This document shows positions 13,456-34,079 of a stretch of DNA of 64,000 bases, piece after piece; within the stretch, counting starts at the first letter, position 1, and the number at the start of each line of letters is the position of its first letter. The position numbers and the translations under genes were made by a program. The notes below the pieces were generated by a model. The model was not told where the DNA came from. It made no database searches and saw only the letters and a program-made list of their open reading frames with translations. Location of the stretch: assembly GCA_965237835.1 (NCBI GenBank), contig OZ250160.1, positions 128,503-192,502 on the forward strand, written 5' to 3'. The DNA is from Candidatus Poribacteria bacterium (GTDB taxonomy: Bacteria; Poribacteria; WGA-4E; WGA-3G).

Positions 13456-13602
13456 TTGTCTGAACCAGGATTTCCAGGATTGAAGATTTGTGAATGGCAA
13501 TGTGTCTTTGTAGCGCAAACTAAAAGTTTGTGCTACAGCAGATACGCTTGATGAGAAACAATCCTGAAAATCTCATAATCCTGAAAATCCTGGTTCAGAC
13601 AA
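13456..13602. repeat. Large imperfect palindrome: inverted family-D arms around a REP-like hairpin
   Basis: TTGTCTGAACCAGGATTTCCAGGATT... (13456-) and ...AATCCTGAAAATCCTGGTTCAGACAA (-13602) flank GTAGCGCAAACT-aaa-AGTTTGTGCTAC (13510-13536). Confidence 0.6.
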
Positions 13603-13924
13603 AATAATCCGAGATTCAGACATTAAATCGGGTGCTGCTTCGCTTTACCCACCTACGATACCGTCAAATACCAACAACTTTACACACCCCGGAATAAAGA
13701 AGTACTTGAAAAAATCTAGTTGATTTGATAAGCTGATGTTGTATGAGATGTCCTCCTAATTCTCAATACAAGGAAACTGAAAATTAACCGATTAAATCCC
13801 TAATCTGCAACTCACCTTATTTCGGGCACCAAACTCACGTTATTATACCAAAAGATTCTCCTTCTCTCACACAATACTATTTCTTTCATCAAACTCACGT
13901 CACGCTATAAATAGAGGTTCCTAC

Positions 13925-17244: not shown

Positions 17245-17253
17245 GAGAAGATT

Positions 17254-18690
17254 GAGCGGTTTGAGAAAAACATCAATATATTGGACGTAGAAGCAAATGT
17301 CCTCCCCGATGACGATGAAGACGATGAGGAATTTTTGGTCAATCGTGCCAAAAATCCGTATCATCTGAAGGAATTAGATTGCACCCGTTGGAAGCAAGAC
17401 CTCATCAAAGATAAACAAACCCTAACGGCAGCGTGGGAAAAAGTCAAATCCATCACCCCTGAGAAAGATGGAAAACTCAAAGAGATCAAGAAGCATATTC
17501 GGGACAAGGTGCAAAATTCCACCGCCGATAAAGATGGAAAACCTAACCGCAAACTGTTAGTCTTCACTACCTTCAAAGATACGGCAGTTTACCTTTATGA
17601 TAACTTGTCTGAACTTGCATCGGAATTAGAGTTGAACATGGCGTTGGTTTCTGGAGAGATAACCCGAACAACCTGCGGACAAAATAACTTCAACGCTATA
17701 CTAACGAACTTTGCACCGCGCGCAAGAGGTCGAACTGATGAAACAAGCGACAACATTGATCTAATCATTGCTACCGATTGCATCTCTGAAGGACAAAATC
17801 TGCAGGATTGTGACACAGTCCTCAATTATGATATACACTGGAATCCCGTGCGTATCATTCAACGTTTTGGGCGCATAGACAGGATCGGTAGCAAGAATAA
17901 AGAAGTGAAAATGATAAACTATTGGCCCACTGAAGATATGGAAGTGTATCTGCGTCTACAAACTCGGGTCGCATCGCGCATGGCACTTGCAGATGCAACC
18001 GCAAGCGGTGATGACGACCCGCTAAACGATTTCACTTATGAACAGGCGGAGATGGAACTCAATTTCCGTGACGCACAGTTGGAGCAGCTACGTAAGGAAG
18101 TGCTTGATCTCGACGATCTCTCTGAGGGTGTTGTGTTGAGTGATTTTACGCTCGATTACTTCTTTACACAACTACTGAAATATCTTGAAAAAAATCGTGC
18201 GGAATTGGATGCAACACCTGATGGTGCCTACGCTGTCACGGATTACGAAAATAATCCGAAGGAAAACGGTGTCATCTTCTTCCTACAACAACGTAACGCC
18301 AGCACAGATAAACAGCAGAAATCTGCCAGTCCCATCTATCCATATTATATCGTCTACATCCGCAATAATGGTGACATCCGATACGGGTGTGCAAACGCTA
18401 AACAGGTGTTAGATCTGTTTGAGGCATCGGCTGTCGGAAAGACCGAACCTATTCAGAACTTGTGCCTACAGTTTGACAGAGAAACCGAACACGGTGATAA
18501 TATGGCACATTATAACAAACTATTGGACACGGTGATTACGCATATCACACGGTCGCATACGAAAACACAGAGCCAAATTCTGAGGAGAGGTAGTCCACGC
18601 GATTCTAAACTTACCCCAGCATCCAAAGTACCTAAAGATACTGGTGATTTTAAATTGGTGACGTGGTTGATTATTACGTCTGATGCCTAA
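17254..18690 (+). pseudogene. PLD-SNF2 helicase, 3' fragment (helicase C-terminal domain plus tail)
   Basis: In frame with 13925-15775 once the IS and one target-duplication copy are removed (...LEKI|ERFEKNINILDVEANV...). Motifs LLVFTTFKDTA and ATDCISEGQNLQDCDTVLNYDIHWNPVRIIQRFGRIDRIGS. The reconstructed ORF is 1095 aa. Confidence 0.85.
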
Positions 18691-18697
18691 AAAACAG

Positions 18698-18734
18698 GTT
18701 CGTAGTCGCGCAATTCATTGCGCCTCTTACATTC
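18698..18734. repeat. Solo arm of the long hairpin found at 51187-51261
   Basis: GTTCGTAGTCGCGCAATTCATTGCGCCTCTTACATTC matches the reverse complement of the right arm and loop edge of the 51.2-kb hairpin. Confidence 0.6.
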
Positions 18735-18818
18735 ATAGGACTTTTCAAACTCAATGGAGCCCTATCTTTATTGTAGGGGCAGGTCTCTGGGCCCGCCCGT
18801 GCTTAGGTGAGATGATGC

Positions 18819-18862
18819 CAATCCTGAAAATCCGCAAATCCTGTGAATCCTGGTTCAGACAG
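18819..18862. repeat. Family-D repeat copy (AATCCTGAAAATCC...GGTTCAGACA)
   Basis: CAATCCTGAAAATCCGCAAATCCTGTGAATCCTGGTTCAGACAG lies between the helicase and methyltransferase genes. Confidence 0.6.
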
Positions 18863-18876
18863 AAAGAGGATCAATA

Positions 18877-21800
18877 ATGAACAAAGACACAATCAAATCC
18901 GCATTAACAGCAATTCCCACCAGCGACTTTTTAGAGAAGTCAAAAGAACTCCTCGCAACGATAGGTTACCACAGCGAACGGACCCTTGATCTTTCTGGCA
19001 CCGTCCACGACTTTTTTGAGGAATTTCCACCATTAAACCCGAACACCAAAACCGAACAGGAATTCCGTAATCACGTTGAATCTGTACAACTCATTTTCCA
19101 ATTTACAAAGGACGAAATTGACGATGACCCACAGCAGCTGACTTTGCTTGAGTCTAATTCGTTCGATAAAGGCAACATTAGCAGTTTCCTGTTTTGTGCA
19201 GTGGAATTAAAAGATAGCGACTACTCCCGCACAAAATACGCTGAGTTTACACGAGAAATCAATAAAAGATTGTTTGCCCCAACTGTGATTCTATTTCGCA
19301 CCGCAGACCATCTGACTGTGGCATTTGCAGATCGCTGTCCAGACAAAACTGACGATGCACGTGATGTGCTTGGACAGGTCACCTTCATCAAAGACATCCA
19401 TCTGAACAATCCACATCGCGCACATCTGGATATCCTCTCCGAACTCTCACTTGCAGAATGCGTCAAGTGGATTGATAACAAGAAAAAACCGAAAAACTTC
19501 GACGGGTTGCTGGCAGCATGGCTCGCCAAATTGGATACGGAAGAGCTCAACAAGCAGTTCTATCGGAAACTGTTCGCGTGGTTTGAATGGGCAATTGACG
19601 AAGCAAAGTTCCCAACAGATGAGAAGCGCGTCATAAAACCGGAGGAGCATGTTATCCGACTCATCACACGTCTGCTTTTTATCTGGTTTATCAAAGAAAA
19701 AGGGCTTGTTGCTGAGGAACTATTTAACAAAGCACAAATCCAAAACCTATTGAAAGCGGATGACTTTGATAACGGCGACTCCTACTATCGCGCCGTACTA
19801 CAAAACCTCTTTTTCGCCACGTTAAACACAGAGATAGACAAACGTGAGTTTAGCAGGGAAAACTATTCTGGTAATCGTGATTTCTCACGGTATCGCTACA
19901 AAACACAGATACGCGATCCTGATAAACTGCTGTCATTCTTTGCTAAAACCCCCTTCATCAACGGAGGCTTATTTGATTGTCTGGATAGTTTCAAAGCACC
20001 AACAAGTGGAGGTTACCGAATAGACTGTTTCTCTGATGTTGATTACAAAAAACTGAGCATCCCCAACCGCCTCTTTTTTGACGAAAGCCAAGGACTACTC
20101 CCTACTATACTTGAACACTACAAATTCACCGTTGAGGAGAACACACCGATAGAGCAGGAAGTCGCGCTTGACCCAGAACTACTCGGCAGAGTGTTTGAAC
20201 ACCTACTCGCCGCTATCAACCCAGAAACCGGTGCAACGGTGCGAAAACAGACCGGCTCCTACTACACCCCACGCGCCATCGTTGACTATATGGTAGAGGA
20301 GGCATTAGTCGCGACGCTCTCCCAAAAGTGCAATCCAACCGATGGCAAAGCCGATTTTTGGAACGAACGGTTACACTATCTTTTTGACTATGCAAAGATA
20401 TTCGATGATGCAAGCGAATGGTTTGACGACACCGAAACTGACGCGATCGTGAAAACAATTTCTGAACTCAAAATACTGGATCCCGCGGTCGGTTCTGGCG
20501 CGTTTCCGATGGGAGTGCTGCACAAGTTAACGCTGGCACTGCGGCGACTTGATCCAGACAACAACCGATGGAAAAATTTACAGAAGGAGCTTGCAGGAAA
20601 ACGCGCTGCTGATGCATTTGATACACAGGATGACCAAGAACGTCGTGAAGAACTGCACGAAATTGACGACACATTCAAACGTTACCGTGATTCGGACTTC
20701 GGACGGAAGTTATACCTGATACAAAACAGCATCTTCGGCGTAGATATTCAACCGATCGCCTGTCAAATCGCCAAACTCCGCTTTTTCATCTCACTTGCAA
20801 TTGAGCAGCAGCCAAACGATAATCCTGATAAGAACTTCGGTATCAAACCCTTGCCCAATTTGGAAACGCGCTTTGTTGCAGCGAATACGCTAATCGGTTT
20901 CAAAGCACAAAGGTCGTTCCTAACCGAAAAAGCAGTGAAGTTAGAGCACGAACTGCAAGACAATCGTGAACAGCATTTCCACGCTACTACTCGCCAACGC
21001 AAACGCGCCTGCCAGACAAAAGATGAAATATTGCGCGGAGAATTGGCAACCGAATTAAAAAGCCTGGGGATGCTTGCAGATGATGCTGAAAAGGTTGCCA
21101 AATGGGATTTGTATGACCAGAACGCCACTGCTGATTGGTTCGATTCGGAATGGATGTTTGGGATTACGCATGGATATGATGTGGTGATTGGCAACCCGCC
21201 TTATATCCAATTGCAAAAGGATGGCGGGAGACTTGGAAATCTTTATCAAAATGCGGGTTTTGATAACTTCGCTCGCACAGGCGATATTTACTGTCTATTT
21301 TATGAACGCGGAATCAAACTGCTAACACGAAACGGGCATCTTTGTTATATTACCAGCAATAAATGGATGCGCGCAGGTTATGGCAAAAAGTTGAGAGATT
21401 ATTTTGTAACTTATACCCAACCCGTTCAACTACTGGATATGGGACCCGATGTGTTTGATGCCACCGTAGACACAAACATTCTGCTGCTACAAAACACCGT
21501 GCTAGATGATCCAATTGACTTCAAAGCCGTAACCATTGGGGCAGATTTTGACAAACAAACCGGTAGCATCGGACAATACTTGAGCGATAACGGTGGGACT
21601 ATGGAAAAACCTGCTAAAGGTGAACCGTGGGCAATACTCTCATCTGCCGAACTCGCCTTAAAACGCAAAATAGAAAATGTCGGCAAACCGCTCAAAGACT
21701 GGAACATCTCTATTCATTACGGAATTAAAACAGGTTATAACACTGCCTTTCTCATTGATAATCAAACGAAAGAGGCACTGATAGAAGCAGATCCCAAATC

Positions 21801-22458
21801 GGATGAAATTATCAAGCCCGTTTTGAAAGGTCGGGACATCAAGCGATATCAAGTTGATTGGGCAGGATTATGGTTGATAGATACACATAACGGATATGAA
21901 AATGTTCCAGCAATTGATGTAAACAATTACCCAATCGTTAAAAGACACTTAGATGGCTTTCACACCCAACTTGAAAAGCGCAGCGACAAGGGACACACAC
22001 CCTATAATCTCCGGCATTGTGCTTACCATTCAGCATTTGAAAAAGCGAAAATTATTTATCCTGAAACAACCCACACCGCTAACTTTTTCTACGATGACGG
22101 GCAATATTTTATAGAGAAAACCTGTTTTATGATAACGGGTAGTGATTTAAAATTGTTAGTTGGACTACTGAGTTCCATTCTAATGACATTTGCTTACAAG
22201 CAATATTGTAGCGGTACTGTACTTGGTAAAAAGGGATACCAATACAACCAACATGCCTTAGAGAAATTGCCCATCGTTAAGATTCCCGCAGCGCAACAAG
22301 CATCTTTCATTGCTTTAGTTGATAAAATCCTTTCCATGAAAGCCGCAGACCCAGATGCAGACACCACAGACTTGGAAAATGAGATTGACCAATTGGTATA
22401 CGCCTTATACGACTTAACCCCCGAAGAAATTGCGATTGTAGAGGGTGCTGCGGGATAA
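18877..22458 (+). CDS. Eco57I/PglX-like gamma-class N6-adenine DNA methyltransferase with a TaqI-like C-terminal specificity domain
   Basis: 1193 aa with GSYYTPRAIVDYMV, ILDPAVGSGAFPMGVL (motif I), VVIGNPPYIQLQ (motif IV) and a C-terminal GIKTGYNTAFLID region. The tail is LENEIDQLVYALYDLTPEEIAIVEG. Confidence 0.85.
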   Translation: MNKDTIKSALTAIPTSDFLEKSKELLATIGYHSERTLDLSGTVHDFFEEFPPLNPNTKTEQEFRNHVESVQLIFQFTKDEIDDDPQQLTLLESNSFDKGNISSFLFCAVELKDSDYSRTKYAEFTREINKRLFAPTVILFRTADHLTVAFADRCPDKTDDARDVLGQVTFIKDIHLNNPHRAHLDILSELSLAECVKWIDNKKKPKNFDGLLAAWLAKLDTEELNKQFYRKLFAWFEWAIDEAKFPTDEKRVIKPEEHVIRLITRLLFIWFIKEKGLVAEELFNKAQIQNLLKADDFDNGDSYYRAVLQNLFFATLNTEIDKREFSRENYSGNRDFSRYRYKTQIRDPDKLLSFFAKTPFINGGLFDCLDSFKAPTSGGYRIDCFSDVDYKKLSIPNRLFFDESQGLLPTILEHYKFTVEENTPIEQEVALDPELLGRVFEHLLAAINPETGATVRKQTGSYYTPRAIVDYMVEEALVATLSQKCNPTDGKADFWNERLHYLFDYAKIFDDASEWFDDTETDAIVKTISELKILDPAVGSGAFPMGVLHKLTLALRRLDPDNNRWKNLQKELAGKRAADAFDTQDDQERREELHEIDDTFKRYRDSDFGRKLYLIQNSIFGVDIQPIACQIAKLRFFISLAIEQQPNDNPDKNFGIKPLPNLETRFVAANTLIGFKAQRSFLTEKAVKLEHELQDNREQHFHATTRQRKRACQTKDEILRGELATELKSLGMLADDAEKVAKWDLYDQNATADWFDSEWMFGITHGYDVVIGNPPYIQLQKDGGRLGNLYQNAGFDNFARTGDIYCLFYERGIKLLTRNGHLCYITSNKWMRAGYGKKLRDYFVTYTQPVQLLDMGPDVFDATVDTNILLLQNTVLDDPIDFKAVTIGADFDKQTGSIGQYLSDNGGTMEKPAKGEPWAILSSAELALKRKIENVGKPLKDWNISIHYGIKTGYNTAFLIDNQTKEALIEADPKSDEIIKPVLKGRDIKRYQVDWAGLWLIDTHNGYENVPAIDVNNYPIVKRHLDGFHTQLEKRSDKGHTPYNLRHCAYHSAFEKAKIIYPETTHTANFFYDDGQYFIEKTCFMITGSDLKLLVGLLSSILMTFAYKQYCSGTVLGKKGYQYNQHALEKLPIVKIPAAQQASFIALVDKILSMKAADPDADTTDLENEIDQLVYALYDLTPEEIAIVEGAAG

Positions 22459-22491: not shown

Positions 22492-22608
22492 GAGGAAAAA
22501 GTTAAGAAAACCCCATAAATTCTGTTTTTAGGCAGTTTATCATTGGCACGAAAATTGCTCGTTAGGTAACCTATATGTTCTTCTAAAATCTGACCGGGAA
22601 GTTGGTAA

Positions 22609-23526
22609 GTGATGGAAATGATTAACAGATTTCGTGGAGAAGCAGGTCGTAATCGCCTTATTTGGGCGTTACGCAAACAGGCTATTCTGCATGACGACGA
22701 AACATTATCCAATGAACTAGCTGACCAAGCCGAACTTCTTCAGTTTGAGTCCGGGGATGAACTAATCATACAGCATGATGCTGACAATGACATCTATTTT
22801 ATTTTAGCTGGGCAACTTTCTATCGTTGTTAATGGACGAGAAGTAGCTATCAGGAAACCTGGAGAACATGTCGGTGAAATGGTGTTAATTGATCCATCTG
22901 CAAGACGTTCAGCGTCGGTTATTGCTATTGAGCAAACGGTTGTTGTCAAAATTTGTGAAACCTCTTTCCGTTTGTTAGCAGAAAAATATCCAAGAATCTG
23001 GCAGCTAATTGCAGTAGAACTTGCCGATAGGTTGCGGCAAAGAAATAGGTTAGTTGCTGCTACAAACCCACGTCCTGTTGTGTTCATAGGTTCCTCAAAG
23101 GAATCACTTCCTATTGCAGAGACGATTAAATCTAATTTAGATGGTAAAGATATCATCGTTCACTTATGGACAGAAGGTGTTTTTGGTGCTTCGCAATTTA
23201 CATTAACCGAACTTGAGAAACAGGTTCAAGAAGCTGACTTTGCAGTACTTGTTCTGGGACCTGACGATGAAGTGATAAGTCGTGACGAAAAATCGGATGC
23301 GCCTCGTGATAATGTAATCTTTGAGTTAGGTCTATTTATGGGAGCATTATCACATGAACGAACCTTTATGGTTATTCCTCACGGGTGTGATATTAAGATT
23401 CCCACTGATTTGCTTGGCCTTATTCCCTTGAAGTATAAATCAGGTGATTCTAACGACTATGCCGATTTGCTGATACCAGTTTGTGATCAACTTCGGCATA
23501 ACATTAAAAAGGTCAACGTTAAATAA
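22609..23526 (+). CDS. pycTIR: Pycsar-type effector: cyclic-nucleotide-binding domain fused to a TIR-like (Cap12/PF10137-type) domain
   Basis: cNMP-binding signature GEHVGEMVLID...RRSASVIA. The TIR-like part is VVFIGSSKESLPIAE...ADFAVLVLGPDDEV...PRDNVIFELGLFMGAL...IPTDLLGL. The start is GTG 22609 or ATG 22612. Confidence 0.75.
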   Translation: MMEMINRFRGEAGRNRLIWALRKQAILHDDETLSNELADQAELLQFESGDELIIQHDADNDIYFILAGQLSIVVNGREVAIRKPGEHVGEMVLIDPSARRSASVIAIEQTVVVKICETSFRLLAEKYPRIWQLIAVELADRLRQRNRLVAATNPRPVVFIGSSKESLPIAETIKSNLDGKDIIVHLWTEGVFGASQFTLTELEKQVQEADFAVLVLGPDDEVISRDEKSDAPRDNVIFELGLFMGALSHERTFMVIPHGCDIKIPTDLLGLIPLKYKSGDSNDYADLLIPVCDQLRHNIKKVNVK

Positions 23527-23550
23527 TTTCATATTAGGAGGATTATTCCA

Positions 23551-24243
23551 ATGAGTTTAGGTGAAGATTTTGCAAAAGAAGTTCGAAAAATATTTCAGGA
23601 AACATGGGCTACCCGGAAAGGCAGAAAAGTCCCAGAACCGGGAGATATAGCATTAGGTAATGATGCTGTGGAGTTAGACGGGACGGTGCTATATGCAGAC
23701 CTTGATGATTCTACAAATCTTGTAGATTCTCATCAACCAAAATTTGCGGCTAAAATATATAAAGCATATCTCAGCTGCGCTGCTAAGGTGATACGGTCTG
23801 AGGGTGGTGTTATCACCTCTTACGATGGCGATCGTATCATGGCGGTATTCATCGGAGACTTAAAAAACACCTCCGCCGCTCGTTCAGCATTAAAAATAAA
23901 CTATACAGTTACCAAAATTATAAATCCTGTTCTAAAAAAGTATTCTCCCAAAACGAATTACAAAGTCAAGCAAGTTGTGGGTATTGACACCAGCAAATTA
24001 TTTGTCGCACGCACTGGAATACGAAATTCGAACGACCTCGTTTGGGTTGGACGTGCTGCGAACTACGCAGCGAAATTGTGTTCTCTTTCACCCAATTACC
24101 CTTCACGACTGACCAAAGGCGTGTACGATAAATTGGATGACTCAGTTAAGTATGCGAATAATGATAAAAGAACGCCTATGTGGAATAAGGCCACATGGAA
24201 TGATATGACGATTTATAGATCAACTTGGCGATGGCCAATATAG
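23551..24243 (+). CDS. pycC: Small class III nucleotidyl cyclase (Pycsar PycC-like)
   Basis: 230 aa with metal-binding VLYADLDDST, GDRIMAVF and VWVGRAANYAAKL. It has a TAGGAGG RBS and starts 24 nt after the effector gene. Confidence 0.7.
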   Translation: MSLGEDFAKEVRKIFQETWATRKGRKVPEPGDIALGNDAVELDGTVLYADLDDSTNLVDSHQPKFAAKIYKAYLSCAAKVIRSEGGVITSYDGDRIMAVFIGDLKNTSAARSALKINYTVTKIINPVLKKYSPKTNYKVKQVVGIDTSKLFVARTGIRNSNDLVWVGRAANYAAKLCSLSPNYPSRLTKGVYDKLDDSVKYANNDKRTPMWNKATWNDMTIYRSTWRWPI

Positions 24244-24443
24244 GAGCGCATAAAATATCATTGACTTATTGGAATGATTGAAAATGGTCTGAATAGCAAA
24301 TAATAGGTAATGTAGATTTTCAATTGAGAAGTCTATGTAATCCCCGATTCAGATAATAAAGAGATTGCGAATATGATGTATCTTATCAGTTTGATACAGA
24401 GCGAGCCATAATGTGAATGCCGTGCTTTTGATATTGCCGTTCC

Positions 24444-24502
24444 TAATCCTGAAAATCCGATAATCCTGAAAATCCTGGTTCAGACAATCCGCGATTCAGA
24501 CA
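24444..24502. repeat. Family-D repeat copy (junction 1)
   Basis: CCTAATCCTGAAAATCCGATAATCCTGAAAATCCTGGTTCAGACAATCCGCGATTCAGACA. Confidence 0.6.
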
Positions 24503-24522
24503 AAAGAAACCGTCATTATAGA

Positions 24523-24660
24523 GAACAAATCCTGAACACACAAACGCAACCCCTTGCCCAAAATGCGTAAACCGATGCAAAGGTTTTTCCTTGAAAATCA
24601 GATTGATAGTATGGTATACTGCTGATACAAATTAACCTTGAAGAAATTCAAGTGTGGGGA
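24523..24660 (+). pseudogene. Degenerate remnant of a methyltransferase 3' end (ghost 1)
   Basis: 24590-24654 reads LENQIDSMVYC*YKLTLKKF, against LENEIDQLVYALYDLTPEEI at the end of 18877-22458. That is 10 of 21 positions by eye, with an in-frame stop. Confidence 0.45.
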
Positions 24661-24745
24661 AAGCACAGAATAAATTTCTGAATCGTGGATTAGATAAAGT
24701 GCTCAGATTTTTGGATTGTGTCATCCGTGAAAAGGAGTGCCAAAA

Positions 24746-25951
24746 ATGCAAAAATACGACGTTGCGTTGTCATTTGCTGCGGAAGACCGTCAGTATGCCA
24801 AAACGTTAGCAAATCTTCTCAAAGCAGATGGATATGAACCCTTTTACGATGAAAATGAGTTAGCAAATCTATGGGGGAAGAATCTATATGACTACTTGTC
24901 GTCGGTTTATAAAGATCAAGCTCGCTATTGTGTGATGTTCCTTTCTAAACACTACGAACGAAAACTATGGACGACCCATGAACGCCAACTTGCGCAAGCA
25001 AGGGCATTTCAGGAAAACCGTGAGTATATTCTCCCAGTTCGTCTCGACGATACAGAAATTCCGGGTATTCCTCCCACGGTCGGATATCTTGATTTACGTT
25101 CAATGACTATTGAAGAAGTCTATGAGGCTTTAGTAAAGAAGTTATCGGGCACCACATTGCAAACAAACACTGATTTCACGAACGCCGCCGTAGTTGAGGA
25201 AGATTCTACCGAGTATGTGCTATTAAATTCTGAAGATGGGAAACTGTATTTCTTTCCGGTTCAAAACGCGCGTTGGGATTCAACAGAAATTTCACTTGAG
25301 CTGCTGCCAGAATCGCCAGAAGATACAGCTTTTCTTCGTTCATTAAGAAGTCATATCAGTGAGGTATTTGCAAGAGATATCTTCATTGCACTTGCGCTTG
25401 GAGAAGATGCTGCGTGGGTAACCCCAAAGGAAGTCGTTCAAACGGCGTCCGGTTCACAAATCGTTTGGAAAGTCGTTCTGAACGTAGAAAGACACAGAAA
25501 AAATGGAAACCCCCTTGGCGAAATAACGTTTGGTAGTTTTTCACCGGATAAGATTGCTGAAATGCGGGCAAAGCGGATCCTACTTAATGAGAAATTAGGC
25601 GAACTTCCACAGGATTTCCAGAACCAAACAGGGCCCGCGGGTTTGTTCAACGAAGTTTCATTGGAAGTGTTTGTTCGTGGCAGCAACGGATTTCAAATCT
25701 CTGCATCAACCATCCCGTTCCTATACCGCTCTATTGGACGAACAGTTGGACGTTTTGAGAAATTCGCACGTTTAATCTCGGTACTTCACCTTAAACTCTC
25801 AAATACAGTTGAAGAGATACTCAAATTAGATTTGAAACTTCTGAATCCTGAACAGGTAGAGATCAAATTCAAAGGGCGTAGGTCCAAGCGGTACGTTAAC
25901 GTTGAACCGTCTATTATTGAATTTGATGGAATCTGCCCACTAACTGAGTGA
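24746..25951 (+). CDS. TIR-domain protein with an uncharacterised C-terminal domain of about 260 aa
   Basis: MQKYDVALSFAAEDRQYAKTLANLLKADGYEPFYDENE...YCVMFLSKHYERKLWTTHERQ...ILPVRLDD is a bacterial TIR. I prefer ATG 24746 (AAGGAG 7 nt upstream) over the track's GTG at 24737. Confidence 0.75.
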   Translation: MQKYDVALSFAAEDRQYAKTLANLLKADGYEPFYDENELANLWGKNLYDYLSSVYKDQARYCVMFLSKHYERKLWTTHERQLAQARAFQENREYILPVRLDDTEIPGIPPTVGYLDLRSMTIEEVYEALVKKLSGTTLQTNTDFTNAAVVEEDSTEYVLLNSEDGKLYFFPVQNARWDSTEISLELLPESPEDTAFLRSLRSHISEVFARDIFIALALGEDAAWVTPKEVVQTASGSQIVWKVVLNVERHRKNGNPLGEITFGSFSPDKIAEMRAKRILLNEKLGELPQDFQNQTGPAGLFNEVSLEVFVRGSNGFQISASTIPFLYRSIGRTVGRFEKFARLISVLHLKLSNTVEEILKLDLKLLNPEQVEIKFKGRRSKRYVNVEPSIIEFDGICPLTE

Positions 25952-26091
25952 TTATATCCTTCATACATAGCAACAGAAAGCGACGTTGTTTTAGAGAGAC
26001 TTCTATCTAACCAACGTAATCAGTTTTATCCTTAATTGAAACAACACCCACTTCACTTGGATTAATTATCATTTTGGAAAATAAAGCAGTC

Positions 26092-27327
26092 ATGAGTGTT
26101 GAGACCCTAAGCGAGTTTATAGAATGGGCGGCAAAATTTAGCGATGGACAATACCTATTTCGTGGGGTTTCAACAGAAAGTTACAAAATAGAGGCATCTG
26201 CTTACCGTCGCTTGCCTGAAACCGACACAAATAATACGAGTAAGCTGCTTAAAATCAATCAAGAGTTGATAGAAAAAGCAAGAGGACTTGGACACGATCA
26301 GAAAGACGGTCAACAGTTATCCGATCTGGAACTACTTGCAGAACTTCAGCATTTTGGTGCAGCCACCTGCCTAATAGATTTTTCACGGAGTGCGTTGGTA
26401 GCATTGTGGTTTGCTTGCCAGCAAGGCTCCAAAGTAGAAGCAAACGGCAAAGTTTTCGCTGTCCGTCATGACGATATGGTCCGCCTAAAGACAGTTAATC
26501 CAAAATTGATCAAAAAAGAGATTGATTATTTTTTCAAACCGGATGAAAATGGTAGATTTCCGCTATATCAATGGCAACCGAAACTTCAGAACAACCGTAT
26601 CATAGCTCAACAATCTGTTTTCGTATTCAGTGGTGCCTCAATTGAAGCAGAGGATGAATGTGTCATTAAGAGAAACAGCAAGCAAGACATCCTAATATCT
26701 CTGGATAATATATCAGGTATCAACGAAGCTAATATTTATCCTGATTTTGACGGGTTTGCTCGATTACATGCCTACAACAAAACATACGTTGAACCGGATG
26801 CTCAAGACTATCTGCAACGTGGAATTGAAGCTCAACAAAATGGCAACCTTGATGATGCTATTGAGTACTACACTGAAGTCATACGGTTGGATCCGGCAGA
26901 CACTTCCACAATTTCAGTGGCTCGTTACAGTCGTGGCGTCGCTTACATCGAAAAGGGAGAGGCAGACCTCGCCATTGAGGATTATAACATCGTAATTCAA
27001 TACGATCCAAATTATGCTCATGCATATAACAGTCGAGGTTATGCGTACAGGAGAAAAGGAGATAATGAGCATGCTGTTAAAGACTATGACGAAGCAATAC
27101 AGATTAATCCGAATAATGTTCTGTTTTATAACAATCGCAGCATAGCACTATTACAGCAGCAAGAGTGGGAAAGGGCAAAATCAGACTTGACAACTGCCAA
27201 GAACATGGGAGTAGATATCATAACGTTATTTCGTAACTCATATTCAAGCATTGCCGACTTTGAGCAGAAACATAATGTGAAACTACCACCAGACATCACC
27301 GCAATGCTAACACCCCCACGGGCATAG
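26092..27327 (+). CDS. FRG-domain / TPR-repeat fusion protein
   Basis: FRG-domain motifs: YLFRGVS, LAELQHFGAATCLIDFSRSALVALWFAC and NRIIAQQSVFVF. The C-terminal half has about 4 TPR units (AIEYYTEVIRLDP, AIEDYNIVIQYDPNYAHAYNSRG...). The start is either ATG 26092 or TTG 26074. Confidence 0.7.
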   Translation: MSVETLSEFIEWAAKFSDGQYLFRGVSTESYKIEASAYRRLPETDTNNTSKLLKINQELIEKARGLGHDQKDGQQLSDLELLAELQHFGAATCLIDFSRSALVALWFACQQGSKVEANGKVFAVRHDDMVRLKTVNPKLIKKEIDYFFKPDENGRFPLYQWQPKLQNNRIIAQQSVFVFSGASIEAEDECVIKRNSKQDILISLDNISGINEANIYPDFDGFARLHAYNKTYVEPDAQDYLQRGIEAQQNGNLDDAIEYYTEVIRLDPADTSTISVARYSRGVAYIEKGEADLAIEDYNIVIQYDPNYAHAYNSRGYAYRRKGDNEHAVKDYDEAIQINPNNVLFYNNRSIALLQQQEWERAKSDLTTAKNMGVDIITLFRNSYSSIADFEQKHNVKLPPDITAMLTPPRA

Positions 27328-27378
27328 CAGTTGAACAGAAAACCCTCCGCTTAGCTGATGACGCTGAGGTGCGATTTC

Positions 27379-27424
27379 CAATCCGCGTCATCTAAGTAAT
27401 CCGTGCAAATCCGAGATTCAGACA
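27379..27424. repeat. Family-D repeat copy (junction 2)
   Basis: CAATCCGCGTCATCTAAGTAATCCGTGCAAATCCGAGATTCAGACA. Confidence 0.55.
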
Positions 27425-27569
27425 ACAAATTCTGAACACACAACACAAACCTTTGTCCTAAACATACAGCCAGATACCGAAGTTTTCACTTGAAAATGAA
27501 ATTGATCGTTTGGTATACTCATTGTACAACATAAACCCCGAAAAAATTGCAATTATGGAAACGGAATGA
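27425..27569 (+). pseudogene. Remnant of a methyltransferase 3' end (ghost 2, best preserved)
   Basis: 27489-27569 is an open 26-codon frame plus stop, LENEIDRLVYSLYNINPEKIAIMETE*. It matches 17 of 25 positions of LENEIDQLVYALYDLTPEEIAIVEG. Its TGA overlaps the ATG of the next gene (ATGA at 27566-27569). Confidence 0.7.
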
Positions 27570-28309
27570 ATACACCAAACGACTCGGAGGCTCAAAAGAG
27601 TCTAAGCGAGGTATTTGAAAAAATCCAAGAAATAGCGGCAAACTCAGCGTATGGCGACTTCATTTATCGCGGTGAGCCTGAACATTTTGAAGGAGAACCA
27701 TACTATGGAAAGGTTTCTTCAAGTCTTTGGCGTAAGTGTCGGAAAGAAATTGGATCGGAGGAATTTGAGGTAGAAGTCATCCAAGATCAGATATTGAAAA
27801 TAGCTAAAGACTATACTCACGAAGAAGACGAGTTTGAGATTTTGACAGAACTTCAACATTACGAGGGGCATACCAATCTTATAGATTTTACAACTGATTG
27901 CCACATAGCCCTGTTTTTCGCATGTGACGGTTCCCTTGGAAAACCCGGCAGGATTATCTTATTAGAAGGAACTGAAGAGATAAAAGATTATATCAAACCA
28001 CCTCGGAATCCTCAAAATCGCATCATAGCGCAAAAAAGTATATTCGTTCGGCCTCCGAAAGGCTTTATCGAACCAGAACAGTTCGCAGAAGTCAACATTC
28101 CCGAATTGCTCAAGGGACCGATGTTGGATCATCTGCAAAAACAGCACGGTATCTCAACTCAAACAGTCTACAACGATCTCCATGGGTATATTAGAAACCA
28201 GGACACCCACCTGAAGGAAGGCATAGAAGTTTACAATGACGAAATGCAGCAGGGGGAAGATGACTTTCAGCTTGAATCGTCTCAACTCAGTAAGGAAAAG
28301 GAGACATAA
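27566..28309 (+). CDS. FRG-domain protein (stand-alone)
   Basis: 247 aa with FIYRGEP, LTELQHYEGHTNLIDFTTDCHIALFFAC and NRIIAQKSIFV. Confidence 0.7.
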   Translation: MNTPNDSEAQKSLSEVFEKIQEIAANSAYGDFIYRGEPEHFEGEPYYGKVSSSLWRKCRKEIGSEEFEVEVIQDQILKIAKDYTHEEDEFEILTELQHYEGHTNLIDFTTDCHIALFFACDGSLGKPGRIILLEGTEEIKDYIKPPRNPQNRIIAQKSIFVRPPKGFIEPEQFAEVNIPELLKGPMLDHLQKQHGISTQTVYNDLHGYIRNQDTHLKEGIEVYNDEMQQGEDDFQLESSQLSKEKET

Positions 28310-28312
28310 AAC

Positions 28313-29116
28313 ATGCAGACACAACCAGAACAGACACCTTACGATATCACCATTGAACGCTTTACCAAAGCAATTGATCGGAGACCCACTTTTGCCCAAG
28401 GTTATAACTATCGAGGTCTCGCTTATGGTAATAAAGGCGAAATTGACCGTGCAATAGAAGACTTTAACACGGCAATTAGACGTAAGGAAAACTATGCCGA
28501 AGCATACAGTAATCGCGGGGCAGCTTACCGCATAAAAGGTGACTATGATCGCGCATTTGAAGATTGTAACATCGCGATAAGACTTGACCCAAATTTGCCA
28601 GAAGCATATAACAATCGAGGGATAGTTTATAAACTCAAAGGTGAGATAGAATTGGCTATTCAAAACTATGACACAGCAATAAAACTTGATCCAAGTTTTG
28701 CTTATGCCTATAATAATCGTGGTATTATTTACTATGAAAGAGAAGATTATGATCTCGCAATCATAGATTATACCAAAGCAATAGAACTGAGACCGGACCT
28801 TGTCCGTCCCTATAACAATCGTGGTAATGTTTACAGTAAAAAAGGCGAGTATGAACGTGCCATCAGAGACTATGACGCGGCGATAGAACGTAACACCGAT
28901 TTAGCAGAGCCATACTACAATCGCGGTATGGCATTTATACGCTTGCAAAAATGGGAAAAAGCCAAAGAAGATTTGACAACTGCCAAAGACAAGCAGGAAA
29001 ATATCATCATTGAACAGTTTCGCAAAGACTATGAAAACATTGCCGACTTTGAACAGAAACATAGTGTTAAACTGCCAGAAGACATCGCCGCAATGCTAAC
29101 TCCCTTGCAGGCATAG
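28313..29116 (+). CDS. TPR-repeat protein (stand-alone partner of 27566-28309)
   Basis: 267 aa with about 6 tandem TPR units (AIEDFNTAIRRKENYAEAYSNRG...). It starts 3 nt after the FRG gene. The last ~45 aa are nearly the same as the C-terminus of 26092-27327. Confidence 0.75.
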   Translation: MQTQPEQTPYDITIERFTKAIDRRPTFAQGYNYRGLAYGNKGEIDRAIEDFNTAIRRKENYAEAYSNRGAAYRIKGDYDRAFEDCNIAIRLDPNLPEAYNNRGIVYKLKGEIELAIQNYDTAIKLDPSFAYAYNNRGIIYYEREDYDLAIIDYTKAIELRPDLVRPYNNRGNVYSKKGEYERAIRDYDAAIERNTDLAEPYYNRGMAFIRLQKWEKAKEDLTTAKDKQENIIIEQFRKDYENIADFEQKHSVKLPEDIAAMLTPLQA

Positions 29117-29167
29117 CAGTAAAACAAGAAACTGTCTTCTCATCAGATTACCTGATACTATAGATTT

Positions 29168-29205
29168 TCAATCCGCGTCATCCGCAATAATCCGCGATTC
29201 AGACA
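29168..29205. repeat. Family-D repeat copy (junction 3)
   Basis: TCAATCCGCGTCATCCGCAATAATCCGCGATTCAGACA. The following AAAGAAACCGCCATTGTAGAACACAAATCCTGA is nearly identical to junction 1. Confidence 0.55.
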
Positions 29206-29226
29206 AAAGAAACCGCCATTGTAGAA

Positions 29227-29375
29227 CACAAATCCTGAGCATACAAATCCAGTGTGCCAAACGCGTACCCCCATACCAACGTTCCAACGCCCCTAAAAAT
29301 GATATTGACAAATTCACCTATAAAGTGTACAGTTTAACAAGCGAACATTCAGAATTGCAAAACGTGGTGAAGGAG
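29227..29375 (+). pseudogene. Degenerate remnant of a methyltransferase 3' end (ghost 3)
   Basis: 29293-29375 reads LKNDIDKFTYKVYSLTSEHSELQNVVKE, against LENEIDQLVYALYDLTPEEIAIVE. That is 9 of 19 positions by eye, collinear and ungapped. Confidence 0.45.
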
Positions 29376-29384
29376 GACATATCC

Positions 29385-29786
29385 ATGAATGGCACCGAAA
29401 AAGTAATAAAGCACTTGGAAATGACACAAAATGTTATTAACCGTTTGGGGCGAAACAGTTTCTTGCTAAAAAGTTGGAGCATGACAATTCTTGTTGCAGC
29501 AATGGTTTTAATCGCCAAAGAAGATTTGCAAAATTCATATTTTGTCTTAGTCCTTTTCCTTCCTATTGCAGGATTTTGGATTTTGGATGGTTACTTTCTC
29601 TGGCAGGAACGGTTGTTCCGAAAGGTCTATGATGAGATCAGAGAGCAAACCGACACCAATTTCAAGATGGATCTCGGTAAGCACAAACCGAAATGTAGTT
29701 GGATATCTGCTATTTTTTCGATCACGCTAAATATTTTTTATTTTATAGAGGTACTGTTTGTGTTCGCAATTGGTTATTTTTCTTAG
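29385..29786 (+). CDS. Small 3-TM membrane protein, hypothetical
   Basis: ATG 29385 follows GAAGGAGGA. 133 aa with three hydrophobic helices. The track ORF from 29325 is an in-frame extension through ghost 3. Confidence 0.5.
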   Translation: MNGTEKVIKHLEMTQNVINRLGRNSFLLKSWSMTILVAAMVLIAKEDLQNSYFVLVLFLPIAGFWILDGYFLWQERLFRKVYDEIREQTDTNFKMDLGKHKPKCSWISAIFSITLNIFYFIEVLFVFAIGYFS

Positions 29787-31203: not shown

Positions 31204-32478
31204 ATGGCAATGGATTATTATATCAGTCTATTTGGTGACGATTCAAACTCAGGTATTTCCCAAAAGCAACCGTGGCAAAGTATTGACAGCGTAAATGCTA
31301 TCCGATTACAACCTGGAGATTCCGTGTGGTTTCACGCAAATCAAACCTTCAAGGGAAATCTCACGCTTTCTGATACAGATACAGATGCCTCAGACAAACC
31401 GATAACGTTCAGTTCATACGGAGATGGTAGAGCAACGATTGATGCTAGCATCGGTCATGGTTTCTTCATCCAAAATCGTGGAGGTGTGCAGATAACTAAT
31501 CTCAACTTCGTTGGCACAGGAGCAGATCAGAATACCAGTTCAGGGATATGGTTCGTCAATACACTGCCGGAACACAAAAAACTGACGCATATACGCATTG
31601 ATAAGGTTAACGTTAGCGGTTTTAAACATGCTGGAATTTGCATCGCCGCGCAGCCAATTGATGGTGGATGGTGTGGGTTCAGCGATGTGAAAATAACACA
31701 CGCCAACGTCCATGATAACGGAGATGCAGGAATAAATTGTTTTGGCGCGTGGAATCCAGAGGACGAGGAATATGCACATGCTAACATCTATGTCGGCAAC
31801 TGCCGTGCATATAGAAACGCAGGCATTCCCGGCAAAGAAAGCCATTCGGGGAACGGTATTATCCTTGCACAAGTAGATGGTGCCACAATTGAGCATTGTG
31901 AGACTTATGAAAACGGGAGGTTGAACGATCACGAAGGCGGTGGTCCCGTTGGTATCTGGACGTGGGATTCAAATCGTGTTGTCATTCAGTTCAATGAATC
32001 ACATCACAACCGAACAGGAAGCAGTAAAGATGGTGGAGGGTTTGATTTAGATGGCGGTGTACGGAACGCAATTGTGCAGTATAATTATTCGCACGATAAC
32101 GATGGAGCAGGTTATCTGTTAGCGCAATTTGAAGGCGCAAAAGCATTTCATGGTAACGTTATCCGCTATAATCTCAGTGAGAATGATGGACGAAGAAACA
32201 GTTTTGGTGGTATTCACCTCTGGTCTACTGGTGCGAATGGCGGTATCAGAAACACAACTATCTATCAGAATACAGTCTTAACGTCCAAATCTGCCACTGG
32301 TAATCCTGCTGCAGTTGACTGTCCGAGTGATGGAATTAGCAACATCCGCTTCTACAATAATACCTTTAAAACCGATGGCGACGCAGTGCTAATTCGGGGA
32401 GAAGATAATCCAGAGGTCATTTTTGAAGGCAACGTTTGCTTGATTGATGACGAGGATTTTGATAAGGAGAAAAAATGA
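31204..32478 (+). CDS. Right-handed parallel beta-helix repeat protein
   Basis: 424 aa with repetitive N/G-rich turns (HDNGDAGIN, ENGRLNDHEGGGP, HDNDGAGY) typical of pectate-lyase-fold proteins. Confidence 0.6.
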   Translation: MAMDYYISLFGDDSNSGISQKQPWQSIDSVNAIRLQPGDSVWFHANQTFKGNLTLSDTDTDASDKPITFSSYGDGRATIDASIGHGFFIQNRGGVQITNLNFVGTGADQNTSSGIWFVNTLPEHKKLTHIRIDKVNVSGFKHAGICIAAQPIDGGWCGFSDVKITHANVHDNGDAGINCFGAWNPEDEEYAHANIYVGNCRAYRNAGIPGKESHSGNGIILAQVDGATIEHCETYENGRLNDHEGGGPVGIWTWDSNRVVIQFNESHHNRTGSSKDGGGFDLDGGVRNAIVQYNYSHDNDGAGYLLAQFEGAKAFHGNVIRYNLSENDGRRNSFGGIHLWSTGANGGIRNTTIYQNTVLTSKSATGNPAAVDCPSDGISNIRFYNNTFKTDGDAVLIRGEDNPEVIFEGNVCLIDDEDFDKEKK

Positions 32479-34079
32479 GGCGTTTTGGAACTCAAGGTCG
32501 CGTGTATCCTGACCGACACTATGTTGTACCACGCACCGAAGAAATTGCTGACTTCATCACCCGTGTCAAAGACGGTCGCTATATCGTACTCTTTGCACCG
32601 CGCCAAACCGGCAAGACCACCTTCTTCCGATTGGCACTTGATACCCTTGCCGCCGAAGATCCAACCTATTTCCCTATTCAATTGAATTTTGAGGAATATG
32701 AAGACTGTACTCTTTCGGAATTTTATGACTCCCTTAAGAAAGAAATTTGCAAAGAAATTGAACGCGTGTTCCTAAAACACGGAGAAGTCCTCTCTGATAC
32801 GCTTAACGACTTCTTAGAAACTGCAGAGATTACCAACCATCTGTCAATGAGGGAATTTTTTGAGCAACTGATGAGTTTTCTGTGCTTTCCGATGAATTGT
32901 CAGAAGATTGTCCTAATTATTGACGAGTTTGACGCTATTCCTCAGGCAGCCGTTCGTGGTTTTCTGCATTCGCTTCGTTATATCTATCTCTCTGACGCAT
33001 TGCGATGCCCACATAGTGTTGGCATCGTCGGCGTAAAAAGCATCGCCCAACTCAACTATGATCGTTCTATTTCGCCATTTAATATCCAAGATGAGTTTCG
33101 GTTGCCTAACTTTACGTTAAAACAAGTGCAGGAACTACTATCGCAATATACAGACGAAGTAGGTCAAGACTTCGCACCAGAGGTGATCGCATCTATCCAT
33201 AAGCAGACTGCAGGTCAACCTGTGCTTGTGAACCGTTTCGCGCAAATTCTGACTGAGGAGATGGATATTCCCAAAACCGAAACCATTACCCCTATACATT
33301 TTTCAACGGCACATACGCAGCTCCTTCGAGGACGAAACACTAATATCCAGCATCTAACAACTAATATCCGTAGAGACCCGCGCTTTGAAAGTATGTTGAT
33401 GAGAATCATGGCGCGTGAGGAAGGCGTGGACTTCAATCTGGATGATGAAGTCATCAGTGAACTCGCTACGTACGGTGTTATCCGAGAAGCCCCTGACGGT
33501 ATGTGTGAGATTGTTAATCCAATTTATCTCTACCGTATCATGAGGACTTTCAAACCGACAATAAATGGATTAGAAGACGATTATTTCTCTGAAGATGCCG
33601 ATACATGTTTTTTGGATTACCTCACATCTACAGGACAGATTGATATGGTCCCCATACTTGATAACTTTCGTGACTTTATCGCTCGCGTCGGTTTCCGTAT
33701 CTTGCAAGTTACAGATACACCGCAGGAGTATATTGGACAGCATCTACTATATGCCTATCTTGAGCAGTTTGTCCGCAGCGTGGGTGGGAATATTTACCTT
33801 GAAGTGCAAACGGGGCGAGGCAGAATGGATCTCCTCCTCATCCACAACCAGCGAAAATACATCGTTGAAACCAAGATTTGGGAAGGAAACAGTCGCTATG
33901 TAGCGGGAAAAAAGCAGCTTGCAGTGTATATGGAATTGGAAGGAACTGTGGAAGGCTACTATGTTGTATTTGATCATCGCCACAGTCCAGAACCGCGAGT
34001 AGAGACTGAGACAGTGGATGGTGTGACAATTCGGAGTTATGTTATTCCTGTGATGCAAGCACGGCCTTCATCAGTTTAG
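32475..34079 (+). CDS. AAA-ATPase-like protein with a C-terminal PD-(D/E)XK nuclease domain
   Basis: Walker A FAPRQTGKTT and Walker B LIIDEFD. The C-terminal GRMDLLLIHNQRKYIVETKIW gives D...E-x-K. It overlaps the upstream gene in ATGA. Confidence 0.65.
   Translation: MRRFGTQGRVYPDRHYVVPRTEEIADFITRVKDGRYIVLFAPRQTGKTTFFRLALDTLAAEDPTYFPIQLNFEEYEDCTLSEFYDSLKKEICKEIERVFLKHGEVLSDTLNDFLETAEITNHLSMREFFEQLMSFLCFPMNCQKIVLIIDEFDAIPQAAVRGFLHSLRYIYLSDALRCPHSVGIVGVKSIAQLNYDRSISPFNIQDEFRLPNFTLKQVQELLSQYTDEVGQDFAPEVIASIHKQTAGQPVLVNRFAQILTEEMDIPKTETITPIHFSTAHTQLLRGRNTNIQHLTTNIRRDPRFESMLMRIMAREEGVDFNLDDEVISELATYGVIREAPDGMCEIVNPIYLYRIMRTFKPTINGLEDDYFSEDADTCFLDYLTSTGQIDMVPILDNFRDFIARVGFRILQVTDTPQEYIGQHLLYAYLEQFVRSVGGNIYLEVQTGRGRMDLLLIHNQRKYIVETKIWEGNSRYVAGKKQLAVYMELEGTVEGYYVVFDHRHSPEPRVETETVDGVTIRSYVIPVMQARPSSV

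Follow-up and report, generated by a model that had tools for sequence, protein, structure and literature searches.

Decayed copies of a methyltransferase gene 3′ end head successive anti-phage cassettes in a defense island of Candidatus Poribacteria

We analyzed a 64,000-nucleotide (nt) stretch of DNA, hereafter called the window, which is part of a 5.93-Mb circular metagenome-assembled chromosome of Candidatus Poribacteria (GCA_965237835.1, contig OZ250160.1, positions 128,503 to 192,502). The region from 13.4 to 29.8 kb is a one-directional defense island, as judged from Pfam and PADLOC matches, and includes a gene for an N6-adenine methyltransferase (MTase) whose nearest relatives come from Candidatus Poribacteria, which are sponge symbionts. 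Downstream of this gene lie three decayed copies of its 3′ end (the last ~100 bases), which we term ghosts, and each of them heads a successive anti-phage cassette. Their source family is the conserved terminal block of the MTase, at about 22326–22458. An original prediction had placed such copies at three cassette junctions, called J1 to J3 here, and had read them as the accretion history of the island. The genes of the island are as follows.

13925–18690, plus strand: HKD(PLD)-SNF2 helicase gene (Pfam, PADLOC), in two pieces, 13925–15802 and 17281–18690
15777–17244: insertion sequence (IS) inside the helicase gene, with a UPF0236-family transposase gene at 15803–17122 on the minus strand
18877–22458, plus strand: type IIG-like N6-adenine MTase, 1193 aa, with Eco57I and TaqI_C domains
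22609–24243, plus strand: Pycsar cassette, with a cNMP-binding/TIR effector (22612–23526) and the cyclase PycC (23551–24243)
24746–27327, plus strand: cassette of a TIR-domain protein (24746–25951) and an FRG-TPR fusion (26092–27327)
27566–29116, plus strand: cassette of FRG (27566–28309) and TPR (28313–29116) genes
29385–29786, plus strand: PDC-M50A-like membrane protein (E = 3.5e-36), the final cassette, with an aminotransferase gene next

The Pycsar genes gave matches with E values of 1e-95 to 1e-118, and the PDC-M50A-like membrane protein forms a single-gene cassette. The helicase is unbroken (1001 aa) in the closest relative of the window, a locus designated L009 whose MTase is 92% identical. 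Because the IS splits the helicase gene, the restriction-like arm is probably dead in the window; the MTase reading frame is unbroken.

At each junction, a 3′ element containing copies of the right end of a terminal repeat follows one cassette, and a ghost heads the next. J1 and J3 additionally carry mini-ghosts, which resemble only the extreme MTase terminus, EEIAIVEG.

24339–24503, plus strand: J1 3′ element, with a degenerate right-end repeat (24339–24356), an AATCCTG array, and right-end cores at 24471–24487 and 24486–24503
24503–24535, plus strand: J1 mini-ghost, KETVIIENKS*
24547–24660, plus strand: ghost J1, with TTGAAA-N18-TGGTATACT at 24591–24620
24674–24691, minus strand: inverted (left-end) repeat copy after ghost J1, the same layout as behind real MTase stops elsewhere
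27328–27425, plus strand: J2 3′ element, comprising the ~100 nt behind the TPR stop and ending in a right-end repeat core at 27408–27425
27446–27569, plus strand: ghost J2, with TTGAAA-N18-TGGTATACT at 27490–27519
29117–29205, plus strand: J3 3′ element, with a right-end repeat core at 29189–29205
29206–29238, plus strand: J3 mini-ghost, KETAIVEHKS*, score 7.1 versus −0.7 for the 99th percentile of random windows
29246–29377, plus strand: ghost J3, with TTGACA-N17-TACAGT at 29305–29333

The score of the J1 mini-ghost is borderline, barely above the 99th percentile of random windows, and both mini-ghosts stand at offset 0 from the repeat end. The relic stop (TGA) of ghost J2 overlaps the start codon of the FRG gene (ATGA).

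Local alignment to the MTase end scored above dinucleotide-shuffled controls at all three junctions (z = 11 for J1, 23 for J2, and 4 for J3), and the junction modules compared among themselves gave z values of about 30 for J1–J2 and J1–J3. A four-way alignment of the MTase end and the three junctions revealed co-linear homology over about 90–130 nt. We also took 32 genuine MTase 3′ ends from elsewhere, with the window and L009 excluded, to construct an independent profile, which we ran over both strands of the whole window (128 kb of strand). The profile matched the MTase end itself (22327–22454, E = 3e-29), J2 (27458–27567, 1e-13), J1 (24557–24690, 4e-11), and J3 (29254–29379, 1e-4), and its next-best match had E = 0.15. 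J3 is the weakest and most decayed ghost but is still significant; identity of the ghosts to the live gene ranges from 57 to 79%. The three predicted ghosts are therefore real, and they do lie downstream of the MTase gene, in its orientation, at cassette boundaries. The homologous spacer that was said to precede them is likewise real, given 90% identity between J1 (24486–24544) and J3 (29189–29247) and six occurrences of its repeat motif AATCCGCGATTCAGACAA (up to three mismatches) in the window, all within the island, versus 0.05 expected. Homology even extends leftward into the 3′ ends of the preceding TPR genes (27229–27362 versus 29018–29151, 76%). However, a fourth copy suspected at 13705–13760 gave no nhmmer match even at E ≤ 100 with filters off and the 311-nt region searched alone, and we rejected this candidate, whose similarity to J1 comes from the repeat and not from a ghost.

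The spacer repeat, called family D in the original prediction, is the terminal inverted repeat of a palindromic element resembling a miniature inverted-repeat transposable element (MITE). This identity, like the promoter-like signals of the ghosts described below, had escaped notice. Three or four subterminal repeats of ~10 nt follow its outer end, TGTCTGAATCGCGGATT. Two further occurrences lie in the island.

13457–13623, no strand assigned: MITE-like palindromic element 5′ of the helicase gene, with terminal repeats TGTCTGAACCAGGATT...AATCCTGGTTCAGACA and an extra right-end copy at 13606–13623
18820–18862, plus strand: right-end repeat copy of the AATCCTG subfamily, ending in TTCAGACA, 14 nt 5′ of the MTase start codon

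Eleven complete terminal-repeat pairs were found, spanning 88–370 nt and including 13457–13602 of the window as well as examples from many related loci. Two such elements were folded and gave hairpins with z = −12.6 and −4.6, the former being the element upstream of the helicase gene, a single long hairpin of −71 kcal/mol. In 44 metagenome contigs, the exact 26-nt motif was found beside IleRS, WD40, HsdS, HsdR-like, and phage portal/tail genes, among others, which marks it as a dispersed repeat family; a search of viral contigs returned no matches. As with MITEs, terminal inverted repeats surround a short noncoding body and many dispersed copies occupy unrelated contexts. No consistent short target-site duplication was seen at repeat copies away from MTase genes, and no transposase was bracketed by repeats in the DNA examined, including the 44 contigs, whose open reading frames (ORFs) beside repeats encode capsid, HsdS, TPR, ATPase, and MTase proteins and one IS1634-like transposase (by eye, unbracketed). 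A literature search on Poribacterial defense repeats returned only general papers about the enrichment of defense systems in sponge symbionts.

In about 18 of 32 MTase homologues, the stop codon lies inside an inverted copy of the repeat at the same position, and the protein ends in ..xV* (GTC TGA ATCGCGG). Other genes that end in or against the inverted repeat encode HsdS (L113, 695–1978), a second type of N6-MTase (L120, 3–2105), and a sensor kinase (L114, 2–2584), and so the supply of a stop codon is not unique to this MTase family. In the metagenome contigs L110 and L114, the neighbors of the exact 26-nt repeat are Y_Y_Y-type sensor genes with, by eye, a Bacteroidota-like appearance. The family may extend across phyla in sponge microbiomes, just as it reaches the Caldilineaceae locus introduced below.

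Our comparison set consisted of about 35 Poribacteria loci plus one from a Caldilineaceae (Chloroflexota) sponge symbiont, L014. Downstream of an intact MTase gene, about 21 orphan ghosts were found in about 15 of these Poribacteria and Chloroflexota loci, each on the strand of the MTase gene and outside any long ORF. Most are preceded by a right-end repeat copy, which is often degenerate, and several are then followed by a left-end copy, as J1 and real MTase ends are. Orphan MTase tails 5′ of the next gene also occur in Bdellovibrio (L070, 15031–15284), Desulfuromonadales (L054, 9606–9690), and Leptospiria (L038, 15397–15471), and the L054 relic resembles J2 in that its stop codon overlaps the start of the following gene. 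Because these three loci lack the Poribacteria repeat, the formation of ghosts is independent of it.

The gene directly behind the MTase encodes FRG-TPR, or in some loci TIR-TPR, in 18 loci. These effector-TPR genes have a conserved tail (..LPEDIAAMLTPPQA) and often overlap or are tightly coupled to the MTase stop, an arrangement that ghost J2 and its FRG gene retain. A derivation of the TPR tail from the MTase region just 5′ of the ghost was rejected (hhalign probability 0.5%).

Whole ghost-headed modules recur as well. The J1-type module, consisting of a repeat end, ghost, degenerate left end, TIR gene, and FRG-TPR gene, is present in the window, L011, L018, and L030, with only its ghost and TIR gene in L004; the J2-type module of ghost, FRG, and TPR is present in the window, L009, L003, L028, and L105. 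The MTases of the module-sharing genomes are only 60–75% identical to that of the window, which indicates that the modules predate the present arrangement of the island. Moreover, the MTase tail in cis is not the closest relative of the window ghosts, ranking 19, 6, and 3 among 34 real tails, although this nearest-neighbor test is informative only for young ghosts, since the window ghosts are too diverged for a donor to be assigned in this way. The ghosts of the window are inherited cassette leaders and not a log of local integrations. The history of serial integration that had been proposed finds support only in part: J1 with its TIR and FRG-TPR genes, and J2 with its FRG and TPR genes, are pre-formed modules and do not record displacement in situ.

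The MTase genes themselves are mosaics. In four pairs (L015 and L031, which are two loci of one genome, L029 and L040, L003 and L041, and L004 and L016), the 5′ ~2.2 kb are up to 98.8% identical, the specificity-domain region is unrelated, and the last 130–200 nt are again 80–90% identical. This pattern indicates swapping of specificity domains and makes the conserved block behind the hypervariable domain a natural recombination anchor. Many Poribacteria genomes hold at least two paralogous loci.

Comparison with close relatives located the breakpoints of cassette turnover. The island differs from that of L009 by three events. The segment from ghost J1 to the J2 repeat is absent in L009, where the left part of J1 is joined to the right part of J2 exactly at TTCAGACAA; a MazE/PIN pair lies within the J3 repeat of L009; and the MTase-proximal slot holds Pycsar in the window versus a ThsB-like TIR protein in L009, with the replaced segment ending where a right-end repeat starts. 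Likewise, L004 differs from L016 by one extra unit of ghost, TIR gene, and 3′ element, bounded by ~110-nt cassette 3′ elements ending in TTCAGACA. In both comparisons, the breakpoints lie at the TTCAGACA end or within the ~110-nt 3′ element and not within a ghost, contrary to the proposal of serial integration into the MTase 3′ end. Identity to L009 climbs with distance from the MTase, from an unrelated proximal slot through 84–94% in the J2 cassette to 94–97% in J3 and beyond. The most variable slot is thus the one next to the MTase, which fits entry near this gene.

The MTase tail also encodes promoter-like sequence. The codons for EIDKLVYxLYNLT (GAG ATT GAY AAA CTG GTA TAT GAA TTG TAT AAT TTA) spell TTGAYA-N17-TATAAT, a second MTase clade has TTGAAA-N18-TATACT at this site, and the IVEG codons form a GGAGG ribosome site. 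A sigma-70 match of at least 10 of 12 positions is present in 23 of 34 real MTase tails (11 of 12 positions in 12 of them), compared with 0.5% of 90-nt windows drawn at random from these genes. Ghosts reach 10 of 12 in 14 of 21 cases, and J1, J2, and J3 each score 10 of 12; the −35 and −10 hexamers are spaced by 16–18 nt and hold a conserved place 5′ of the gene. When orthologous ghosts from seven genomes were aligned, the ATTGAcA and TAtgAT/TTAA columns were invariant and the 17-nt spacer and the reading frame were scrambled, as would be expected if the sequence were a promoter but not if it were a coding relic. Furthermore, the window and L009 copies of ghost J2 share 94% identity, versus 75% at the third codon positions of FRG and 67–80% in flanking intergenic DNA. 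Judged from these sequence patterns, the ghosts most likely supply a promoter and a ribosome site to the next effector gene, and we infer that this promoter is functional.

We favor, with moderate confidence, the explanation that the ghosts have been exapted as promoter leaders for effector cassettes, which are shuffled by recombination at repeated junction modules. In this scheme, a ghost is a pseudogenised copy of the conserved terminal block of the MTase (the last ~90–175 nt). The block may double as the expression leader of the effector gene that follows, and its stop and the start codon behind it often overlap. A cassette that formerly stood directly behind an MTase would retain the block as its 5′ leader when stacked behind another MTase, after which the coding frame would decay and the promoter hexamers persist. 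Each cassette closes, on its 3′ side, with ~100 nt that terminate in the right repeat (..AATCCGCGATTCAGACA) of the MITE-like element. Together, the 3′ element and the ghost form a junction module offering ~250 nt of portable homology, and recombination between such modules could gain, lose, and reshuffle cassettes, with the highest turnover beside the MTase. Ordinary homologous or short-homology recombination, instead of a dedicated recombinase, presumably carries out this shuffling. The homology and its recurrence, the conservation of the modules and of the promoter-like sequence, and the position of the breakpoints at the repeat end are observed directly.

Several observations weigh against this explanation. 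Conservation of ghost J3 (94%) is no higher than that of neighboring coding sequence, and the window's own MTase tail scores only 6 of 12 against sigma-70. The hexamers follow from conserved codons, and therefore their presence in young ghosts is inherited and does not prove selection. In addition, matches were scored to the sigma-70 consensus, which may not reflect Poribacterial promoter rules. The young ghosts raise a further difficulty because they copy the MTase in cis, which looks like insertion with duplication and not like import of a foreign leader. In L008, a ghost of 153 nt that is 96% identical to the cis MTase tail abuts the right repeat end; in L026, a ghost of 130 nt (90%) includes the start of the left repeat; and L014 has a tandem unit of tail plus effector (about 2 kb, 83%) plus a third tail. 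These cases are the signature of a cassette lying between direct repeats of the MTase tail, an arrangement that could have arisen by Campbell-type integration, by unequal exchange through the tail, or by site-specific insertion with a long duplication. Recombination between repeats of 9–110 nt explains the loss and reshuffling of cassettes but not the first arrangement of tail, cassette, and tail. The notion that the tail serves as an accretion anchor is upheld in part: it accords with the recurrence of ghosts in many islands and with the young tail-flanked cassettes but not with the inherited leaders of the window. A separate idea, that ghost length is capped at the "KIP" codons through microhomology with the repeat end (GATTC), was unsupported, as the L008 junction lies past the full repeat end and outside the GATTC.

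The same young ghosts bear on an alternative that we consider unlikely, in which a recombinase or transposase encoded elsewhere places non-autonomous elements bounded by TGTCTGAATCGCGGATT terminal repeats in the MTase terminus. The tail would be duplicated or replaced each time, the ghosts would be attR-like scars, and the repeat arrays would be protein-binding arms. Such insertion would account for the 130- to 153-nt duplications flanking the inserts in L008 and L026, for the fixed position of the MTase stop within the inverted repeat, for the modules of right end, ghost, and left end at J1, L007 (5979), L026, and L024 (15613), and for the three or four subterminal ~10-nt repeats per end, as would be expected of protein-binding sites. 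It also gains from the mini-ghosts, since a 24-nt EEIAIVEG-coding copy stands at a fixed distance of +2 nt from the right repeat end at 13 of 67 island sites and at none of 66 sites elsewhere, and from MITE copies in L015 and L027 (88–316 nt) that are flanked by ~28- to 30-nt duplicates of the MTase terminus. These two findings hint at a precise, possibly enzyme-driven event and likewise count against the promoter-leader explanation. However, the called genes of the interval 5087414–5160061 (~72 kb) have no integrase, resolvase, or other recombinase family on record, in agreement with the original prediction that no integrase is visible, and the only transposase among them is that of the UPF0236 IS in the helicase gene. 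Nor was an integrase, resolvase, or matching transposase seen beside repeats in the 44 metagenome contigs. Long duplications, like clear target-site duplications, were not seen at non-MTase repeat copies, the lengths of the duplicates vary from 24 to about 175 nt, breakpoints against close relatives run from repeat to repeat, and ghosts in Bdellovibrio and Desulfuromonadales occur without the repeat.

A bolder version, which we regard as quite unlikely, would make the repeat-bounded units a novel type of site-specific cassette-capture system. Here, a recombinase encoded elsewhere would recognize ATCCGCG arrays and the MTase terminus and would insert effectors precisely at the MTase stop, with a target duplication of unusual length (~25–175 nt). 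The MTase tail would then be both attachment site and promoter, and the whole would resemble an "integron without IntI" for defense genes in sponge symbionts of different phyla.

It is also improbable that the ghosts are passive debris, the neutral and functionless tails of tandemly arranged, formerly complete helicase-MTase-effector systems, the downstream ones of which lost their helicase and most of the MTase by deletion. Tandem MTases do occur (L006, L038, L051, and L043), many Poribacteria genomes have the paralogous loci noted above, the ghosts carry stop codons and frameshifts, and the helicase of the window is itself broken by an IS. However, random deletions should leave a spread of relic lengths, and no relic longer than about 175 nt was found among the about 21 ghosts with a 441-nt profile, although the sequence 5′ of the tail encodes the hypervariable specificity domain, which makes it difficult to detect. 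Conservation of ghost-cassette modules across genomes, the invariant hexamers flanking a scrambled spacer, the elevated conservation of J2 relative to neutral proxies, and the copying of the cis gene by young ghosts all argue against neutral remains. Finally, we give almost no credence to chance or convergence, which hexamer-rich sequence could in principle produce but which is countered by homology reaching beyond the hexamers and by profile E values of 1e-4 to 1e-13 with nothing else in the strand searched, or to a template repeat of a diversity-generating retroelement acting on the MTase C terminus, whose template/variable repeat layout a near-identical direct copy downstream of a gene 3′ end does recall but which we rejected because no reverse transcriptase is on record among the called genes of the ~72 kb and because the mismatches of the L008 pair are mostly A in the gene versus G in the copy and not adenine-specific in the required direction.

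A few other features of the window lie beside these main subjects. One further promoter-like site precedes the Pycsar cassette.

22544–22558, plus strand: sigma-54-type promoter-like site, a perfect TGGCAC-N5-TTGC, 50 nt 5′ of the Pycsar effector gene

This site falls in the 123 nt past the MTase stop, a stretch that L009 conserves ahead of its ThsB-like gene; it is the sole match in the window, yet at least one match also arose in 15 of 100 shuffles. Between the helicase and MTase genes, a 67-nt unit (18683–18749) is present once, and L009 has a tandem array of ~14 copies (8885–9807). A further family of dispersed repeats is suggested by the GCGCAATGAATTGCGC hairpin of this unit, inverted copies of which lie beside repeat ends in L005, L021, and L022. 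A search of the 13–30 kb region for known RNA families gave no match at E ≤ 1. Outside the island, the window encodes additional defense-like proteins: an AAA_15/AAA_21 ATPase paired with a DUF4435 protein (58679–60642) and, at 32475–34079, an AAA_35 ATPase whose C terminus is NERD/PD-(D/E)XK-like and whose gene is also conserved beside the island in L009.

Defense islands are known to be modular, but the manner in which systems are stacked and remain expressed is mostly unexplained outside integrons and satellite or prophage hotspots. In the island described here, the junctions are readable, with a gene fragment reused as a putative promoter leader on the 5′ side and a MITE-derived element on the 3′ side, and the ghosts show a defense island that is built from reusable modules. 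If the promoter role is correct, it would account for the repeated appearance of the same ~100-nt relic in different genomes and phyla, and effector genes that work with this helicase-MTase family could be located by a simple sequence tag. Should a dedicated recombinase be at work instead, the island would represent a new cassette-capture platform in uncultivated sponge symbionts.

Integrative elements are known to accrete in tandem at gene 3′ ends, as in tRNA and tmRNA islands and in ICESt1/ICESt3 and cis-mobilisable elements at fda. As in such arrays, each junction of the Poribacterial island bears a direct, same-orientation repeat of the target-gene 3′ end, and the stack is unidirectional, with new material beside the intact gene. 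Unlike those arrays, the island has no integrase on record in the ~72 kb, its units are defense cassettes of 0.5–3 kb, and its repeats are diverged from the live gene instead of being identical cores. The ghosts, moreover, travel with the downstream cassette, and breakpoints fall in a separate, MITE-like repeat.

Integrons carrying anti-phage cassettes (for example, bioRxiv 10.1101/2024.07.02.601719 and PMC12614218) are a second comparison. The island shares with them a one-directional stack of small defense cassettes, each ending in related repeats, and the highest turnover next to the platform. However, the island is without IntI, attI, and Pc, and each cassette appears to bring its own putative promoter in the form of a ghost. 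The integron attC site is a hairpin (R''-L''...L'-R'), whereas the island repeat is a transposon-like terminal repeat ending in TTCAGACA. The 3′ elements end in ..AATCCGCGATTCAGACA after direct ~10-nt repeats, most junctions are one-armed, and no GTTRRRY-type core was seen at the island breakpoints.

Short palindromic repeats such as REP/BIME, ERIC, and Correia-type elements, as well as "minimal mobile elements" exchanged via flanking homology, offer another parallel. Like these, the island repeats are short, hairpin-forming, dispersed elements with terminal repeats at gene boundaries, which provide portable homology for rearrangement and may carry expression signals. They differ in belonging to another sequence family, seen here only in sponge symbionts, in having three to four subterminal ~10-nt repeats per end, and in a left end that regularly supplies the MTase stop.

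In Type I HsdS and Type IIG enzymes, specificity domains are shuffled through conserved flanking regions. The island resembles these enzymes in that the ghost matches the conserved block located behind a hypervariable specificity domain, and in that MTase pairs share their ends but not their middle. It differs in that the block is duplicated outside the gene, where it heads other genes and does not form a silent specificity cassette.

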